64,000 nucleotides of DNA from an uncultured Candidatus Rokubacteria bacterium (GCA_963841755.1 CAWJDX010000009.1:10880-74879); one strand, 5' to 3'. Counted from the first letter of the stretch, positions 30,324-37,283 are shown. Program-made: numbers and translations. Notes: generated by a model from the letters alone, not told the origin.

Positions 30324-30878
30324 ATGCCCCGCATCGCCCCGATCACCGGCAAGTCCGACGTGCCCGCGGAGCACCACGCGGTGGTGGACGAGGTGGTGCG
30401 CGTCTTCGGCAACGTGCGCGGGCCCTTCAGCATGCTGCTGCACAGCCCGAAGCTGGCCGAGCGGCTGCTGCCGCTGGTCACCTTCTTCCGCGACGAGAGC
30501 GTGGTGGAGGGGCGCCTGCGCTCGGTGGCCATCCTGGCCGCGGTGCGCGAGCGCGAGGCGGCGTACGTCTGGTCGGCCCAGGTCGCGGCGGCCCGGCGCA
30601 ACGGGGTGGCGGACCAGGTCATCGACCTCCTCCGCGCCAAGGGCGACCCGGCCGGGCTGCCCGCGGAGGAGCGCGAGATCGTGACCTACGTGCGGCAGCT
30701 CATGCGGACGAACCGGGTGGACCGGGCGGCCTTCGACGCGCTGGCCAAACGCCGGGGGCCGCAGTGGCTCGTGGAGATGACCGCGGCCGCGAACTACTTC
30801 GCGATGCTCTCCGGGGTGGTCAACGCGCTCGAGGTGGAGGCGCCCCCGGACGGCGACAAGCTGCCCGCCTCGGCCTGA
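30324..30878 (+). CDS. Carboxymuconolactone decarboxylase-like protein without redox Cys
   Basis: MLLHSP, LRSVAILAAVR..AYVW and EREIVTYV..L pattern. No CxxC. Confidence 0.7.
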   Translation: MPRIAPITGKSDVPAEHHAVVDEVVRVFGNVRGPFSMLLHSPKLAERLLPLVTFFRDESVVEGRLRSVAILAAVREREAAYVWSAQVAAARRNGVADQVIDLLRAKGDPAGLPAEEREIVTYVRQLMRTNRVDRAAFDALAKRRGPQWLVEMTAAANYFAMLSGVVNALEVEAPPDGDKLPASA

Positions 30879-32059
30879 CTCACGCGGCCGGCAGCGCCTG
30901 CGTAGATCGCGCGCTCGAAGCGGCCGTACAGCGCGACCACGCGCGGGTCGGCGAAGGGCAGGACCTGGGTCATGATGAGCCCGGTGACGCGCCGGACCGG
31001 ATCGAGCCAGTAATACGTGTTGTAGAGCCCGCCCCAGCTCACGGTGCCCGCGCTGCGGCCGTTCGGTCCCGGGTCCAGGTTGAGCATGTAGCCGAGGCCC
31101 CAGCGGATGCGCGCCCCCGGGAAGAAGTCCACGTCGCTCGACATCTCGGGCAGCGCGGTCTTCATGACGCCGGCCGGGATCTCGCCGGTGTGGTTCTCGC
31201 CCATCAGGGCCACCGTCTCCGGGCGCAGCAGGCGCGCCCCGTTCCAGCTCCCGCCGTGCAGCAGCATCTGGAGGAGCTGGAGATAGTCGCGCCCGGTCGA
31301 GTAGAGCGGCCCGCCGCCCGACCAGAACTCCGCCGCGGTCGCGGGCGGCTCGAGCGGCTGGAGCAGGAGCGAGCCGTCGGCCTGCCGCTGGTGCAGCCGC
31401 GCCTGGCGGGCCCGCTGCTCGGCGGTGGTGACGAAGCCGCTGTCGGTCATGCCGAGCGGCGCGAAGATGCGCTCGCGGAAGTAGGCGTCGAGCGGCCGCC
31501 CGCTGGCGGCTTCCACGAGCCGGCCCACCCAGTCCGTGTTGATGCCGTACTCCCACCGCTCGCCCGGATCGAAGACGAGCGGCATGCGGATGGACGCCAC
31601 GTGCCCGCCGCCCCGCGCGGGCAGCCCCGCGGTCTCGAGATAGCGGCCGACGGTCGGATCCCACACGCTGTAGCCGAAGCCGGCGGTGTGGGTCAGCAGG
31701 TGGCGCAGGGTGATCGGTCGCCGGGCGGGGCGGAGGCGCGGCGTGCCCGATGCGTCGAAGCCTTCCAGGACCTGGGGCGAGCCGAGCGTGGGATCGATGT
31801 CGGGCACCGGCGCCTCGAGCGCGAGCTTGCCCTGCTCGACCAGCTGCATCGCGGCGACCGAGGTGATGGCCTTGGTCATCGAGGCGATGCGGAAGACGCT
31901 GTCGAGCGTCATCGGCTCGGGCTGGTCGAGCGCGCGCCGGCCGAACGCGCCCTCGTAGAGGACGCCGCGGTCGGTGGCGGCCATCGCCACCACGCCCGGC
32001 ACCTCGCGGGATGCGGCGGCCTGCCGGAGGACGGCGTCGACCTGCGGCAGCGGGGTCAT
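30794..32059 (-). CDS. Serine hydrolase, beta-lactamase/EstA-like family
   Basis: ASMTK (SxxK), LLTHTAG, WEYGIN and WGG. The last ~30 codons overlap the convergent CMD gene and may be read-through from a lost stop. Confidence 0.85.
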   Translation of the reverse strand: MTPLPQVDAVLRQAAASREVPGVVAMAATDRGVLYEGAFGRRALDQPEPMTLDSVFRIASMTKAITSVAAMQLVEQGKLALEAPVPDIDPTLGSPQVLEGFDASGTPRLRPARRPITLRHLLTHTAGFGYSVWDPTVGRYLETAGLPARGGGHVASIRMPLVFDPGERWEYGINTDWVGRLVEAASGRPLDAYFRERIFAPLGMTDSGFVTTAEQRARQARLHQRQADGSLLLQPLEPPATAAEFWSGGGPLYSTGRDYLQLLQMLLHGGSWNGARLLRPETVALMGENHTGEIPAGVMKTALPEMSSDVDFFPGARIRWGLGYMLNLDPGPNGRSAGTVSWGGLYNTYYWLDPVRRVTGLIMTQVLPFADPRVVALYGRFERAIYAGAAGRVSQAEAGSLSPSGGASTSSALTTPESIAK

Positions 32060-32068
32060 GCGATCGGT

Positions 32069-32860
32069 CTACAGGATGGAGCGGACGAGGCCGCCGTCGA
32101 CCAGGATCGTGGTCCCGGTGATGTAGCTCGACTTGCCGGAGGCGAGGAACGCGACCAGGTGGGCCAGCTCCTTCGGCTCGCCCACGCGGCCCACCGCGGT
32201 CTCGGCCGCGCGCTGGGCCAGCGCCTCCTCGAGCGGGATGCCGAGCTGCTTGGCGCGCGCGGTCACGTTGGACAGCATGCGCTCGCTCATGATCGAGCCG
32301 GGGCACACGTTGTTGACCAGGATCCCGTCGCGGCCGACCTCGTCGGCCAGCGTCTTGGCGAACGCGACCACGCCCATGCGGGTGACGCCGGAGAGCACCA
32401 GGTTGGGGATGGGCTGGTAGACGGTGCTGGCCAGGATGTTGATGATGCGGCCGGCGCGCTGGCGCTTGAGATGCGGCAGCGCCTCGCGGCACATCCGCCC
32501 GAAGAAGAAGAGCGAGCGCTGCACCGCGGTCTCCCACTGCTCCTCCGTCGCGCTCTGGGCCTGGGCCAGGGGCGGGCCGCCCGAGTTGTTCACCAGGACG
32601 TCGAGGCGCCCGAAGCGGGCCACGGTGGCCGCCACCAGGTCGCGGATGGTCTCGGGCCGGTCCAGGTCGCCCGCGAAGACCAGCACCTCGCGGCCGGTCG
32701 CGGCGCGGATCTCGGTCGCGGCCTTCTCCAGATCGTCCTTCGAGCGGCTGCAGATGGCCACGTGCGCGCCCTCCTGCGCGAGCACCTCCGCGCAGGCCCG
32801 GCCGAGGCCCTTGCTGGCGCCGCCGACGATCGCCACCTTGTCCCGGAGCTCGAGGTCCAT
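32069..32860 (-). CDS. Short-chain dehydrogenase/reductase with atypical SxxxR active-site motif
   Basis: GGASKGLG, LVNNSGGP, LSGVTR in place of YxxxK. Confidence 0.88.
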   Translation of the reverse strand: MDLELRDKVAIVGGASKGLGRACAEVLAQEGAHVAICSRSKDDLEKAATEIRAATGREVLVFAGDLDRPETIRDLVAATVARFGRLDVLVNNSGGPPLAQAQSATEEQWETAVQRSLFFFGRMCREALPHLKRQRAGRIINILASTVYQPIPNLVLSGVTRMGVVAFAKTLADEVGRDGILVNNVCPGSIMSERMLSNVTARAKQLGIPLEEALAQRAAETAVGRVGEPKELAHLVAFLASGKSSYITGTTILVDGGLVRSIL

Positions 32861-32960
32861 GGGGCAGTGTTATACCACAGGGGCTGTGATACGCTTCCCC
32901 GCGCGCCGGGCGAAGCCGGCTACCCCCACGGGATCCCCCAATACGACGAGGTGTGACGCG

Positions 32961-33728
32961 ATGCGAGCGAACAAGATCAAGCAGATGTGGCGCGAGGGCA
33001 AGTGCGTGACGATGGGCTGGCTCTCGGTGTCGAACGGGTTCACCGCCGAGGTCATGGCCCGGCAGGGCTTCGACGCCCTGGTCATCGACATGCAGCACGG
33101 CCTCACCGACATGGCCAACCTCTGGCCCATGCTGCAGGCGGTCTCGCAGACCGACACGGTGCCGGTGGTGCGGGTGGCCGCGAACGACCCCGCCACCATC
33201 ATGAAGGCGCTCGACTTCGGGGCGTACGGCATCCTGGTGCCCCTGATCAACACCGCGGAGGACGCCGCCAAGGCGGTGGCCGCCTGCCGCTATCCCCCGG
33301 TGGGCATGCGCTCCTCGGGCCCGGTGCGCGCGGTGCACTACGGCGGCGCCGACTACGTGGCCAAGGCCAACGACGAGATCGTGGTGATGGCGATGATCGA
33401 GACCAAGGAGGGCCTCGCCAACCTCGACGCGATCTGCGCCACCCCGGGGCTCGACTGCATCTACATCGGCCCCGCCGACCTCTCGTTCGCGCTCGGGCTG
33501 GCCCCGCGCGGCGACAACCCGGACCCGGTGCACATCGCCACCTGCGACAAGATCCGCGACGCGGCCCACAAGCACGGCAAGAAGGCGGCCATGCACTGCG
33601 CGAGCGCGGCCTTCGCGGCGGGCTCGGTGAAGCGCGGCTTCGACCTGGTCATGCTCTGCTCCGATCTCGCGTCGATGGTCGCGGGCGTGCGCAAGCAGCT
33701 CGACGACCTGAAGGCCGCCACCGCCTGA
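32961..33728 (+). CDS. HpcH/HpaI-family class II pyruvate aldolase
   Basis: IDMQHG, VVRV, AMIETKEG and IGPADLS motifs. Confidence 0.88.
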   Translation: MRANKIKQMWREGKCVTMGWLSVSNGFTAEVMARQGFDALVIDMQHGLTDMANLWPMLQAVSQTDTVPVVRVAANDPATIMKALDFGAYGILVPLINTAEDAAKAVAACRYPPVGMRSSGPVRAVHYGGADYVAKANDEIVVMAMIETKEGLANLDAICATPGLDCIYIGPADLSFALGLAPRGDNPDPVHIATCDKIRDAAHKHGKKAAMHCASAAFAAGSVKRGFDLVMLCSDLASMVAGVRKQLDDLKAATA

Positions 33729-33729
33729 G

Positions 33730-34842
33730 ATGACCGCGCCCCTTCGCCCGACCACGCTCGAGATCGATCTCGATGCGGCGGCGGACAATCTGCGCGCGGT
33801 TCGCGGGCTCGTCGGCCCGTCGCGGTCGATCTTCGCGGTGGTCAAGGCCGACGGGTACGGCTTCGGCGCCGCGGAGATGGGCGCGGTCTTCGCCCGCAGC
33901 GGCGCGGACTGGCTCGCGGTGGCCGATCTCTCCGAGGGAGTGCGGCTCCGCGAGCGCGGCATCACCATCCCCATCCTCGTCTATCCGAACTCGCTCCCGG
34001 AGGCGGCCGCCGCGGCGCTCGCCCATCGCCTGGTGCCGACCCTCGTCGATCTCGAGTCCGCCCGCGCCTACTCGCAGGCCGCGTCCGGCCCGTGCCCGGT
34101 GTTCGTCAAGGTGGACGTCGGGCTCGAGCGGCTCGGGGTCCCGGCCGAGCAGGCGGTCAAGACCATCCTCGCGATGCTGGAGCTGCCGCACCTCACCCTG
34201 GGCGGGCTCTGCGCGCACCCGCACGCCGAGGTGGGCGGCGATCCCGCCTACGCCGACTGGCAGGCGGGCCGCTTCACCGCGGTGGTCGACGAGCTGGAGG
34301 CGCGCGGGGTGCGGGTGCCGGTGCGGCTCCTGGCCGCGAGCCCGTTCGTGCTGCGCTTCCCGCACACCTATCTGAACGCGGTCGATCCGGGCCGGATGCT
34401 CTACGGCATCACGTTCCCCGGGGAGACGCCGCCGGTGCCCCTGCGGCCGGCGCTGCGCGCGCTCGCCACGCGGGTGATCGCGCTGAAGGAGCTGGCCCCG
34501 CGCGAGCGGTTCGCCGAGGCGGCGCCGTTCCCGGTGACCGGGCCGATGCGGCTCGGGGTGGTGCCGATGGGCTCGGCCGACGGGCTGCGCTGGCTCCACG
34601 CCGGCCGCGTCCTGGTACGCGGCCGCGCGGTGCCCCTGATCGGGACGCCGTCTCTCGAGCACACCCGGATCGACCTCACCGCGGTGCCGGACGCGGCGGT
34701 CGGCGACGAGGTCATCATCATCGGCCGCCAGGGCGATCTCGAGATCACCCCCGCCGAGGTGGCCGCCCACCACGGCCTCGGCCTTCACCACGTGGCGACG
34801 ACCGTCGGCCCCCGCGTCGCCCGCATCTACCACGGTGCCTGA
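33730..34842 (+). CDS. Alanine racemase-fold PLP enzyme, non-canonical paralog
   Basis: AVVKADGYG PLP-Lys motif is present. The C-terminal VSYG and GYADG motifs read FAEA and GSADG. Confidence 0.8.
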   Translation: MTAPLRPTTLEIDLDAAADNLRAVRGLVGPSRSIFAVVKADGYGFGAAEMGAVFARSGADWLAVADLSEGVRLRERGITIPILVYPNSLPEAAAAALAHRLVPTLVDLESARAYSQAASGPCPVFVKVDVGLERLGVPAEQAVKTILAMLELPHLTLGGLCAHPHAEVGGDPAYADWQAGRFTAVVDELEARGVRVPVRLLAASPFVLRFPHTYLNAVDPGRMLYGITFPGETPPVPLRPALRALATRVIALKELAPRERFAEAAPFPVTGPMRLGVVPMGSADGLRWLHAGRVLVRGRAVPLIGTPSLEHTRIDLTAVPDAAVGDEVIIIGRQGDLEITPAEVAAHHGLGLHHVATTVGPRVARIYHGA

Positions 34843-34858
34843 TGGGGCGCCGCCTGAT

Positions 34859-34926
34859 GGGGTCAGGTCTTACATTCCGACATTTTTCCGCCCGACGTTT
34901 TCCTGGCCGACATTTGTCCGGCCGTC
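34859..34926 (+). repeat. REP/MITE-like family B copy with degenerate 15-bp tandem tail
   Basis: ggggtcaggtcttacattccgacattttt, with ccgac modules at 34877, 34892, 34907 and (ccgtc) 34922. Confidence 0.85.
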
Positions 34927-34944
34927 GATGAGGAGGCTCACGAT

Positions 34945-35790
34945 ATGCCCAAGGTCCTGACCGAAGCACAGGTCGAGCGGTACCAGCGCGACGGCTGTCT
35001 CTCCCCGGTGCGCGCGATGAGCGCGGAGCGGGCGCGCTACTACCGCGAGAAGTTCGAGGCGCTCGAGTCGCGCGTCTCCGACATCAAGAAGATGAAGACC
35101 AAGTCGCACCTGCTCGCTCCCTGGGTGCTCGAGATCGCGGAGGACCCGCACATCCTCGACGTCTTCGAGGACCTGGTCGGCCCGAACCTCCGCTGCTGGT
35201 CCATGGCCTGGCGGGTGAAGAAGGCCGACGGCGAGACCTTCGCGGGCTGGCACCAGGACTCCGCGTACGGGGCCGCGCAGCCGGTGGTGCTGGGCGGGCT
35301 CGCGCTCTCCAACTGCGGCGTGACCCAGGGCTGCCTGCGCGGGGTGCCCGGCTCGCACAAGTGGGGGATCCTGAAGCACGACGAGAAGGACGACCCCAAG
35401 TCCATCCTCGCCAAGGGCCAGTTCATCACCGACGAGTTCGACGAGTCCAAGGCGGTCGACTTCCCGCTCGAGCCCGGCGAGATGGTGATGTTCGACAACT
35501 CGCTGGTCCACGGCTCCGGCACGAACTTCGGCCCCGACCGCCGCTTCCTGCTGCTGGTCGAGATGGTGCCGACGTGGGCCAAGCCGGCGCGCGTCCGTCA
35601 GTCCGCGATGCTGGTGCGCGGGACCGACACCTCCGGCAACTTCGACGACGAGGCGCGGCCCGACGCGGAGTGGTCGGACTACGCGGTCGGGAACTGGAAC
35701 CGGGTGGTCGAGTCGCGCGCCAAGCTCATCTTCGAGAACAGCAAGGTCGCCCCCAGCGTCGCCTACGGCGGCACCCGCGCCGCGACGTAA
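34945..35790 (+). CDS. Phytanoyl-CoA dioxygenase (PhyH) family Fe(II)/2OG oxygenase
   Basis: GWHQD, NGCL-like QGCLRGVPGSHK, LVHGS and DRR. Confidence 0.88.
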   Translation: MPKVLTEAQVERYQRDGCLSPVRAMSAERARYYREKFEALESRVSDIKKMKTKSHLLAPWVLEIAEDPHILDVFEDLVGPNLRCWSMAWRVKKADGETFAGWHQDSAYGAAQPVVLGGLALSNCGVTQGCLRGVPGSHKWGILKHDEKDDPKSILAKGQFITDEFDESKAVDFPLEPGEMVMFDNSLVHGSGTNFGPDRRFLLLVEMVPTWAKPARVRQSAMLVRGTDTSGNFDDEARPDAEWSDYAVGNWNRVVESRAKLIFENSKVAPSVAYGGTRAAT

Positions 35791-35793
35791 GAA

Positions 35794-35880
35794 GGGGTCA
35801 GGTCTTACATTCCGACATTTTCATCGCCTGGGGCGACATGACGCGCTCCACGAAAATGTCGGAATGTAAGACCTGACCCC
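35794..35880. repeat. 87-bp family B element: two 29-bp perfect inverted repeats around a 29-bp spacer, between convergent genes
   Basis: 35794-35822 is the exact reverse complement of 35852-35880. Confidence 0.92.
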
Positions 35881-35881
35881 A

Positions 35882-36793
35882 TCAGCGGGCGGGGGCGGGG
35901 TGGGTGGCGGCCCAGTGGCGGGCGATGTCGATGCGGCGCGTGAACCAGACGTCCTTGTGGCCCGCGATGTAGTCGAGCGCGCGCTCGAGGCCGGCGGCCC
36001 GTGACGGGTGGCCGATCAGGCGCAGGTGCAGGCCGAGCGACATCATCTTGGGCTGGGTCTGGCCCTCGCGGTAGAGCACGTCGAAGCCGTCCTTCACGAA
36101 CGTGAAGTAGTCGGCGGCGGTGAAGAAGCCGCCGCTGCCGAACTTGGAGTCGTTGGCGGTGAGGCTGTACGGCACGACCAGGTGTGGCTTGCTCCCCACC
36201 CGCACCCAGTAGGGCAGCTCGTCGTTGTAGGCGTCGGAGTCGTAGAGGAAGCCGCCCTCCTCCACGATCAGCCGCCGGGTGTTCACGCTCGGGCCGTAGC
36301 GGCAGTACCAGCCGAGCGGCCGCTCGCCCACCGTCTTCTTCATCGACTCGATCGCCTTGCGGATGTGCTCCCGCTCCTCCGCCTCGGACAGCTCGTAGTG
36401 CTTGACCCAGCGCCAGCCGTGGGAGCACACGTCCCAGCCCGACTCACGGATCGCGGCCGCGACCTTCGGGTTGCGCTCGAGCGCGAGCGCGCACCCGAAC
36501 ACGGTGAGCGGCAGGCCGCGCTCCTTGAAGAGCCGGTGCACGCGCCAGAAGCCCACCCGGCTGCCGTACTCGAACATGCCCTCGGCGGCGAGGTCGCGCC
36601 CCTTGACCCCGTAGTTGGAGGCGCCGGATTCGGTGAGGGTGGCCTCCGAGACGCCGTCGTCGAGCGCGTTGTACTCGGAGCCCTCCTCGTAGTTCATCAC
36701 GAAGTTGACCGCGATCCGCGCCTCCCCCGGCCAGTGGGGATGCGGGGGAGTGCCGCCGTAGCCGACGAGGTCGCGCGCGAAGTCGGTCGTCAT
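35882..36793 (-). CDS. puuE: Allantoinase PuuE (polysaccharide deacetylase fold)
   Basis: WPGEARIAVNFVMNYEEGSE, FEYGSRVGFWR, SHGWRW, GWYCRYGPS and MSLGLHLRLIGHPSR. Confidence 0.9.
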   Translation of the reverse strand: MTTDFARDLVGYGGTPPHPHWPGEARIAVNFVMNYEEGSEYNALDDGVSEATLTESGASNYGVKGRDLAAEGMFEYGSRVGFWRVHRLFKERGLPLTVFGCALALERNPKVAAAIRESGWDVCSHGWRWVKHYELSEAEEREHIRKAIESMKKTVGERPLGWYCRYGPSVNTRRLIVEEGGFLYDSDAYNDELPYWVRVGSKPHLVVPYSLTANDSKFGSGGFFTAADYFTFVKDGFDVLYREGQTQPKMMSLGLHLRLIGHPSRAAGLERALDYIAGHKDVWFTRRIDIARHWAATHPAPAR

Positions 36794-36796
36794 GTC

Positions 36797-37283
36797 TCAG
36801 GGCTCCTGGGGAAGATCGATGGTGAGCGGGGTGGTGACCGGGACGAACTCCTCGTCACCCGGGGTGCCGTCGCGCCACATGAGCACCGCGAACGAGGCGG
36901 GCCCGTCCAGCACCGTGAGCGGGTGATGCCACGTGCCCATGGCGTAGGTGACGCCCTGGCCCGCGCGCGCCACGAAGGCGCGCAGGCGCGAGAGGTCGGG
37001 CCCGCCGCCGGGCGCGTCCAGGGTGGCCAGCACCAGGTAGCGCGACACGTGGAGCGGGATGAAGGTCTGCGACGAGTGCTCGTGGCGCTCGAGGACCTTC
37101 ACGTCCAGCGGGAAGGTGGCCTTCGGGCGCCACGGTGGCGACCGCGAGGCTCACCGGGGCGTGGGCGCGCCCGCTGGCCAGCGTGTCGCTCAGGTAGGCG
37201 CGCCCCGGCGCGGGCGTGCCCTCCAGCACGGCTCCGAAGGGCTTGAAGGCTTCCGCGGTCAATGGCTCGGCGACGATGCGCAT
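36797..37283 (-). CDS. allA: Ureidoglycolate lyase; frameshift near 37125
   Basis: EPLTAEAFKPFG N-terminus, LERHEHSSQTFIP and GQGVTY..GTWHHP. Confidence 0.85.

Follow-up and report, generated by a model that had tools for sequence, protein, structure and literature searches.

The window analysed here, a 64,000-nt stretch of DNA from an uncultured Candidatus Rokubacteria bacterium with a G+C content of ~71%, carries a gene for a two-domain protein, hereafter AlrL, which follows directly upon a gene for an HpcH/HpaI aldolase and resembles alanine racemase (Alr), a pyridoxal 5'-phosphate (PLP) enzyme. All coordinates are counted from the window's first letter. AlrL matches both Pfam domains of the family (Ala_racemase_N, PF01168, E 9e-51; Ala_racemase_C, PF00842, E 4e-20) and scores 213 bits against the TIGR00492 "alr" model (cut-off 168), so that annotation pipelines name it alanine racemase, although the score does not demonstrate this function. 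With the G. stearothermophilus Alr (1sft/1bd0) it shares ~36% identity (HMMER E 4e-50). An AlphaFold2 model, built from 40 sequences of the clade described below, reached a mean pLDDT of 94 and superimposed on the crystal structures of Alr and VanT with a Foldseek TM-score of ~0.9; a search of the PDB returned no entry from this clade, the top matches all being canonical Alr or VanT. Judged by its sequence, AlrL is a vitamin-B6 enzyme on the alanine racemase fold in which three of the catalytic residues of Alr have been lost or changed.

The active site was mapped by HMMER alignment to 1sft, which was gapless with high posterior confidence over residues ~250–285; the underlying codons were checked. 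In the following, single residues of AlrL are given in one-letter code and those of Alr in three-letter code. Lys39, Tyr43, Lys129, Arg136 and His166 are kept as K39, Y43, K127, R134 and H163, and S204 and G221, which bind the phosphate, are further residues of the cofactor pocket retained in AlrL. The first-pass annotation of this DNA had placed Glu at Tyr265 and Ser at Tyr284 in a gapless match, and the alignment to 1sft/1bd0 reproduces both with high confidence (E263 and S282). Its further readings, an intact PLP lysine (K39), YGFG for the Alr motif YGHG (His45 to F45) and GTPSLE for its GRVSMD motif, which is GRICMD in 1sft (Met312-Asp313 to L309-E310), were likewise borne out. In addition, Tyr354 is replaced by H353, and hence both gate tyrosines (284 and 354) have given way, to Ser and His, respectively. 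We found no tyrosine in AlrL that could stand in for Tyr265, the sole one of the C-terminal domain being Y367 in the last strand, and no shift of the alignment brings another Tyr to the catalytic position. The most diagnostic change, Arg219 to D219, was absent from the substitutions listed at that stage, and its alignment is unambiguous (NMVRFG in Alr, NAVDPG in AlrL).

In Alr, Lys39 abstracts the alpha-proton of D-amino acids, and Arg219 hydrogen-bonds the pyridine nitrogen of PLP. Arg219, together with the Lys39/Tyr265 pair, is held to explain the near-exclusive racemisation by this enzyme, and the laboratory mutants Y265A and R219E showed that Arg219 and Tyr265 govern its choice of reaction. 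In the Alr of M. tuberculosis, Asp313' and Gln314' of the partner subunit face the PLP O3' (phenolic oxygen) via waters (PMC10288493). By analogy, the equivalent E310-H311 pair of AlrL may be positioned to take part in catalysis.

Table 1 Features of the AlrL locus and residues of the AlrL active site
Feature	Position	Strand	Basis and remarks
Short-chain dehydrogenase, divergent from the HpcH gene	32069..32860	-	Pfam
HpcH/HpaI class II aldolase, 255 aa, first operon gene	32961..33728	+	Pfam PF03328, E 8e-36
AlrL, Alr-fold PLP enzyme, 370 aa	33730..34842	+	ATG start, TGA stop; member of the Asp219/Glu313 clade
K39, PLP Schiff-base lysine and D-face base, kept	33844..33846	+	1sft alignment; 122/122 orthologs
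H163-P164-H165 (H163, His166 counterpart; H165, extra His)	34216..34224	+	1sft alignment, orthologs
D219 in place of Arg219	34384..34386	+	Alignment; D in 120/122 orthologs
E263 at the Tyr265 position, not conserved	34516..34518	+	Gapless alignment; ortholog counts
S282 at the Tyr284 (inner gate) position	34573..34575	+	1sft alignment, orthologs
L309-E310-H311-T312-R313 for Met312-Asp313-Gln314-Cys315-Met316	34654..34668	+	1sft alignment, orthologs, clade
AlrL-PhyH spacer, 102 nt	34843..34944	+	Sequence inspection
PhyH-type Fe(II)/2-oxoglutarate dioxygenase, 281 aa	34945..35790	+	Pfam PF05721, E 5e-22

The conservation of these residues was assessed in 122 close orthologs, which are 81–96% identical to AlrL. 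Position 263 varies among them (E in 91, A in 16, D in 8, Q in 4 and G in 2) directly beside F261, fixed in 122/122, and A262, present in 119/122. This variability next to fixed or almost fixed neighbours indicates that the position is relaxed and that E263 is not catalytic. Glu263 was consequently rejected as a new base, and the earlier suggestion that Glu had replaced Tyr265 as the second catalytic base does not hold. All 122 orthologs carry K39, Y43, H163, H165, L309, E310 and R313, while H311, C161, R274, H353 and H354 are each found in 121 and D219 in 120 of them. Altogether, 97 of the 370 positions of AlrL are invariant, including the checked residues that bind the cofactor, of which only S204 alternates with T. 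This pattern suggests that the function of Tyr265 was lost at its own site and that D219 and the E310-H311 pair are the constrained novelties of the enzyme.

As a control, one genome per species was scanned for the Lys39 motif, which gave 80 loci with few clade members among them. The approximately 70 loci of canonical Alr, which represent many phyla, all have R219, Y265, Y284 and M312, and D313 is present in all but one. Nine loci with D219/E313 and without Tyr265 proved to be members of the clade and not canonical Alr. Since the canonical loci are almost uniform and the 122 orthologs consistently lack Tyr265, the substitutions in AlrL are not a matter of chance.

For a wider survey, AlrL was scored against 1.8 billion cluster representatives, and 113 full-length hits were aligned (115-sequence alignment). 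Positions 219, 265 and 313, in Alr numbering, read R-Y-D as in canonical Alr in 38 sequences and D-(not Y)-E in 54; D-Y-E (7) and N-Y-E (3) are intermediates, and a few sequences read C-x-E. A FastTree phylogeny places the canonical sequences in a single clade, apart from the group without Tyr265 that contains AlrL, and the forms that retain this Tyr together with D/N219 and E313 lie between the two. Within the D219/E313 group (n=63), the counterpart of E310 is found in 63/63 sequences, those of H311 and R313 in 52/63 each, R274 in 51/63 and H165 in 39/63. Position 265 is E in 17, D in 16 and Y in 7 of these sequences, the rest being gaps and other residues including S. Asp219 and Glu313 together define the clade, which we describe by Asp (rarely Glu) at 219, Glu313, usually His314 and Arg316, and the absence of Tyr265 in most members; AlrL, with D219, E310, H311 and R313, falls within it.

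Members of the clade occur in Dehalococcoidia, Actinomycetota, Reyranella, Rhodobacterales and Acetobacteraceae, and also on plasmids of Agrobacterium vitis and Sinorhizobium, where they are annotated as "alr, peptidoglycan biosynthetic process". The database name "alanine racemase" is carried by relatives of AlrL and, in every case, by clade members. The close protein relatives of AlrL come from metagenome-assembled genomes labelled Methylomirabilota (Rokubacteria-type), and in 201 searched genomes of the phylum, orthologs with at least 62% identity were confined to order-level relatives. (This tally and that of the 61 family genomes mentioned below include the unpublished genomes G029, G047, G152, G058 and G101, on which none of the individual claims depends.) Full-text literature searches turned up no report on an enzyme of the Alr family in which residue 219 is Asp, and no characterised member of the Asp219/Glu313 clade was found. 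By all sequence indications, AlrL belongs to a large, widespread and conserved clade that appears to be mis-annotated.

The source genome (G000, an assembly that is 84% complete) contains five Ala_racemase_N genes, and Ala_racemase_C is present in AlrL and in one canonical alr only. The latter, for which the first-pass annotation had recommended a check, is located on contig C8 (L001) and has every standard residue (KANAYGHG, R219, SYG, GRVCMDQ). With this canonical gene on a separate contig, AlrL is not the genome's supplier of D-alanine. A heterodimer with a paralog donating the Tyr was also ruled out, as the only other Ala_racemase_C gene is this canonical alr on the other contig. The best explanation, which we put forward with reserve, is that AlrL is not the alanine racemase of the cell, though probably an active PLP enzyme. 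Apart from its Glu base, the earlier interpretation therefore stands in so far as AlrL is no standard racemase and most likely a non-racemase or a PLP enzyme of altered specificity.

Two other genes, on contigs C24 and C13 (L004:1114-2214:- and L005:1462-2523:+), have an HxKTHK lysine motif and match only Ala_racemase_N in a search with the N-terminal domain; we read them as DSD1/D-threonine-aldolase-type. A 246-aa Ala_racemase_N gene probably encodes a YggS-type PLP-binding protein, judged by length alone. These assignments would bring the number of distinct fold-type III enzymes other than Alr in this genome to at least three. No match to DAP_epimerase (PF01678) was obtained in this 84%-complete assembly; since 56 of the 61 genomes of the family have one, the missing DapF is probably due to assembly incompleteness. 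Genomes with both the classical DapF and AlrL exist among these 61, and AlrL as a replacement of DapF was rejected. A role of AlrL as diaminopimelate epimerase is unlikely for the same reason, and dap genes were not found near AlrL.

In the window, the HpcH gene ends with a TGA at 33726–33728, one base before the ATG of AlrL at 33730, which confirms the adjacency noticed earlier. Among solved structures, this aldolase is most closely related to the hydroxyketoacid aldolases 6r62/7o5i (E ~1e-59). Its divergent arrangement with the short-chain dehydrogenase gene is repeated in a locus of the same genus (L033, 89% identity). Downstream of AlrL, the product of the PhyH gene contains an HxD motif, which points to a hydroxylase rather than a halogenase, and has 6ZYK as its best PDB match. 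The spacer between the two genes includes three tandem CCGAC(A/G)TTT-containing units with 15 nt spacing (34877–34927) and a GAGGAGG ribosome-binding site ahead of the PhyH gene; the 11-nt sequence GCCTGATGGGG is duplicated across the AlrL stop codon (region 34837–34927). As the AlrL and PhyH genes are only ~15 nt apart in the same-genus relative L118, the longer spacer of the window may be a local insertion or else an array of operators. Neither a sigma-70-like promoter nor an intrinsic terminator was found in 32700–36000.

Further genes were seen on both sides of this region. The divergent operon contains a beta-lactamase-family gene (30794–32059, minus strand), which has its best matches among family VIII carboxylesterases and LovD-type transesterases and no close relationship to beta-lactamases or D-aminopeptidases; its assignment as a D-aminopeptidase was unsupported. 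On the other side, a ureidoglycolate lyase open reading frame (36797–37150, minus strand; 101–118 aa) covers positions 70–146 of the 162 profile positions and adjoins a polysaccharide-deacetylase (PuuE-like) gene at 35882–36793. With the N-terminal third missing, the lyase gene may be truncated or frameshifted.

The genomic context was surveyed at 27 ortholog loci in which the gene was called. Six genomes, from two genera, have an HpcH gene directly before the AlrL gene and in the same orientation (5/27 loci and, in L128, an incomplete HpcH gene where the contig ends), so that the link to HpcH proposed earlier is real but shallow. In one genus, AlrL is part of a tight cassette of D-2-hydroxyacid dehydrogenase, HpcH, AlrL, aldo-keto reductase and luciferase-like oxidoreductase, and no other deaminating enzyme was found in the tight HpcH-AlrL cassettes. 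The luciferase-like oxidoreductase is adjacent in 8/27 loci, mostly in divergent orientation, whereas Amidohydrolase_2 was found in 6, TauD or PhyH dioxygenases in ~5 and a family-3 solute-binding protein in 4 of the 27. A PhyH gene near the HpcH-AlrL pair is also present in L118, L033 and L128. The three most distant orthologs are located in a cluster of DctP, AlrL, class III aminotransferase and hydantoinase A-B genes.

In the wider clade, the Rhodobacterales members show the gene order HyuB-HyuA-AlrL, and a Dehalococcoidia member has a class IV aminotransferase as neighbour. In two Alphaproteobacteria, the Alr-like gene (36–37% identical to AlrL) is adjoined by a triple-RidA gene, RidA being an enamine/imine deaminase, together with a 2-hydroxyacid dehydrogenase, a short-chain dehydrogenase and a luciferase-like oxidoreductase. 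The triple-RidA (Endoribonuclease L-PSP) proteins of ~420 aa (L069:6468-7742:- and L051:4911-6167:-) have an unusual fused architecture. The order to which one of these two members belongs gave no further orthologs in the 151 genomes searched, and the RidA link thus rests on two loci. On the Agrobacterium vitis plasmid pAvCG78b (L114:5690-9967), an Asp219/Glu313 "alr" lies inside an operon for a polar-amino-acid ATP-binding cassette (ABC) transporter, with traR a few kb away; this layout, typical of opine-catabolic regions, hints at an opine-like substrate of this member.

As a tentative first choice, we propose that AlrL is a one-base, D-face PLP lyase which carries out an alpha,beta-elimination to a 2-oxo acid, taken together with the wider lyase reading. 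In this mechanism, D219 would protonate the ring nitrogen of PLP, turn the cofactor into a strong sink for electrons and so stabilise a quinonoid carbanion. The D-face lysine K39, as the only C-alpha base, would deprotonate a larger D-configured (2R) amino acid in a widened pocket with two new conserved arginines (R274, R313), and the substrate would probably be beta-hydroxylated and/or acidic. With one base, elimination or C-C cleavage could take the place of reprotonation from the opposite face; a precedent is the Alr variant without Tyr265, which becomes a D-specific retro-aldolase (PMC4401734). The likeliest reaction would be alpha,beta-elimination (dehydratase/ammonia-lyase chemistry), with retro-aldol cleavage as the second choice. 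The elimination is favoured since HpcH, 2-hydroxyacid dehydrogenase and RidA handle 2-oxo acids or their precursor imines and since the cassettes lack another deaminase. The resulting 2-oxo acid might be passed to the co-translated HpcH aldolase and, in sister genomes, also to the D-2-hydroxyacid dehydrogenase, the aldo-keto reductase and the luciferase-like oxidoreductase. A beta-hydroxy substrate could come from the hydroxylases of the PhyH or TauD type that are often encoded nearby; candidates are beta-hydroxy-D-amino acids (e.g. 3-hydroxyaspartate) and 2-amino-2-deoxy-aldonates.

Several points weigh against this proposal. To our knowledge, all known enzymes that combine PF01168 and PF00842 are racemases or epimerases (Alr, DadX, VanT, Bsr, Lyr, OrnR, HisR, DapF2), and the prior therefore favours racemisation. 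The gene context of the orthologs is heterogeneous, with the HpcH link confined to two genera, and the class III/IV aminotransferases and hydantoinases beside some clade members would suit a racemase. The invariant E310-H311 pair or H165 could serve as a relocated base; H165, which is fixed in the orthologs and lies on the loop where OrnR has its substitute base, is a candidate acid/base. OrnR demonstrates that loss of Tyr265 is compatible with racemase activity when the base is relocated (PMC13397332).

The foremost rival, a two-base racemase or epimerase of a non-alanine substrate, draws on the same points; we consider it unlikely, though well ahead of the remaining rivals. Here E310'/H311' of the partner subunit or H165 would replace Tyr265, and Asp219 would only tune the cofactor. 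The complete or, for H311, almost complete conservation of these residues in the orthologs is in line with such a role, as is the precedent of OrnR, which uses Cys164 on the His166 loop in place of the Tyr (PMC13397332). A dapF mutant can be complemented by DapF2/Alr2, which long went under the name of alanine racemase (PMC13759103). In the tree, the intermediates with D/N219, Tyr265 and Glu313 suggest that Glu313 preceded the loss of the Tyr, and besides aminotransferases and hydantoinases, amino-acid ABC transporters are among the neighbours of some clade members. However, OrnR retains Arg220, and we found no characterised Alr-family racemase in which the residue at the ring nitrogen is acidic. 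H165 is missing from many clade representatives, as counted above. The cassettes of HpcH, 2-hydroxyacid dehydrogenase, aldo-keto reductase and luciferase-like oxidoreductase contain no enzyme that would deaminate a racemised product, and the RidA neighbours of the two alphaproteobacterial members are more in keeping with an enzyme that forms enamines.

A D-specific retro-aldolase of the D-threonine aldolase kind, which would split a beta-hydroxy-D-amino acid into glycine and an aldehyde, is improbable. The first-pass annotation had cited as established that removal of Tyr265 turns Alr into such an enzyme, and this is confirmed by the literature: the Y265A variant gains the activity with His166, which acts on the beta-OH, as base (PMC4401734). 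H163 is retained in AlrL, and the neighbouring aldo-keto reductase and short-chain dehydrogenase could reduce the aldehyde. Nevertheless, glycine and an aldehyde offer no obvious 2-oxo acid to the pyruvate-dependent HpcH and the 2-hydroxyacid dehydrogenase, and the genome already contains the two DSD1/D-threonine-aldolase-type genes. Moreover, a His/Asp metal site like that of the D-threonine aldolase AxDTA could not be mapped onto AlrL.

Still less probable is another quinonoid-dependent reaction, such as transamination or decarboxylation, which D219 next to the ring nitrogen would enable. An Asp or Glu at N1 of PLP is the rule in aminotransferases and fold-type III decarboxylases, and both the single lysine base of AlrL and the neighbour genes for handling 2-oxo acids would be compatible with this reaction; yet we know of no precedent in the Alr architecture. 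Against decarboxylation speaks the retained R134, which binds the substrate carboxylate, and in some loci a separate aminotransferase adjoins the AlrL-type gene. That AlrL is an ordinary alanine racemase or an inactive relic is very improbable: the TIGR00492 score and the names of its relatives suit the former, but four essentially invariant Alr residues (R219, Y265, M312 and D313) are changed and a canonical alr is found elsewhere in the genome, while the invariant positions among the orthologs argue against a relic.

For the clade as a whole, and somewhat more tentatively than for AlrL itself, we propose the first natural non-racemase on the two-domain Alr scaffold, a single-base D-face lyase or aldolase, which would be a beta-hydroxy-D-amino-acid or amino-aldonate ammonia-lyase, or an aldolase. 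If this lyase is real, it would represent an undescribed catabolic route feeding class II HpcH aldolases, and the label of peptidoglycan alanine racemase would be wrong for dozens of sequence clusters in many phyla, among them the plasmid-borne ones of Agrobacterium and Sinorhizobium. As genes of the clade carry the Gene Ontology term for peptidoglycan biosynthesis, identification of the reaction would correct a widespread annotation error. Alr is a textbook PLP enzyme, and here Tyr265 and Arg219 are both changed in nature, together with a fixed Glu-His pair, across a large clade; the reaction of AlrL would probe mechanistic ideas about Alr on a natural enzyme. It might further reveal a new degradation route for D-amino acids or amino-sugar acids in abundant soil bacteria and provide a new biocatalyst for beta-hydroxy-D-amino acids.

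Compared with known systems, AlrL has in common with Alr/DadX (1SFT) the fold, K39, Y43, the position of the carbamylated Lys (K127), R134, H163 and S204/G221. It differs by D, E, S, H, L-E-H and F in place of Arg219, Tyr265, Tyr284, Tyr354, Met312-Asp313-Gln314 and His45, respectively. The Y265A variant of Alr (Seebeck and Hilvert 2003, as cited in PMC4401734) is likewise an Alr scaffold without Tyr265 in which K39 and His166 are kept, and it accepts beta-hydroxy-D-amino acids. Beyond this variant, AlrL is a natural enzyme and adds Asp219, the E310-H311 pair and two new arginines; its neighbours suggest a 2-oxo acid as product, unlike the glycine and aldehyde formed by Y265A.

OrnR resembles AlrL as an Alr-family enzyme without the catalytic Tyr, but keeps Arg220, has Asn for His166 and uses Cys164 in catalysis (PMC13397332), whereas AlrL has Asp219 and keeps the His. 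The corresponding loop of AlrL reads C161-A-H163-P-H165-A166 and lacks the OrnR-type Cys/Arg220 signature. From the offset between Cys164 and Asn161 in OrnR, the residue of AlrL equivalent to Cys164 would be an Ala, and C161 of AlrL stands two residues before the His. The D-threonine aldolases and DSD1 D-serine dehydratases (e.g. AxDTA) share the fold-type III barrel, act on D-beta-hydroxy substrates and have no base of the Tyr265 type, and by analogy AlrL may work like them. AxDTA has Gln at the ring nitrogen, and its catalysis needs a His/Asp metal site (PMC4401734); the C-terminal domain of AlrL is Ala_racemase_C, unlike in this family. Finally, DapF2 / S. aureus Alr2, compared here by description, parallels AlrL as an Alr-family enzyme that was mislabelled alanine racemase and has another role, although DapF2 is encoded in a dap operon and AlrL is not (PMC13759103).

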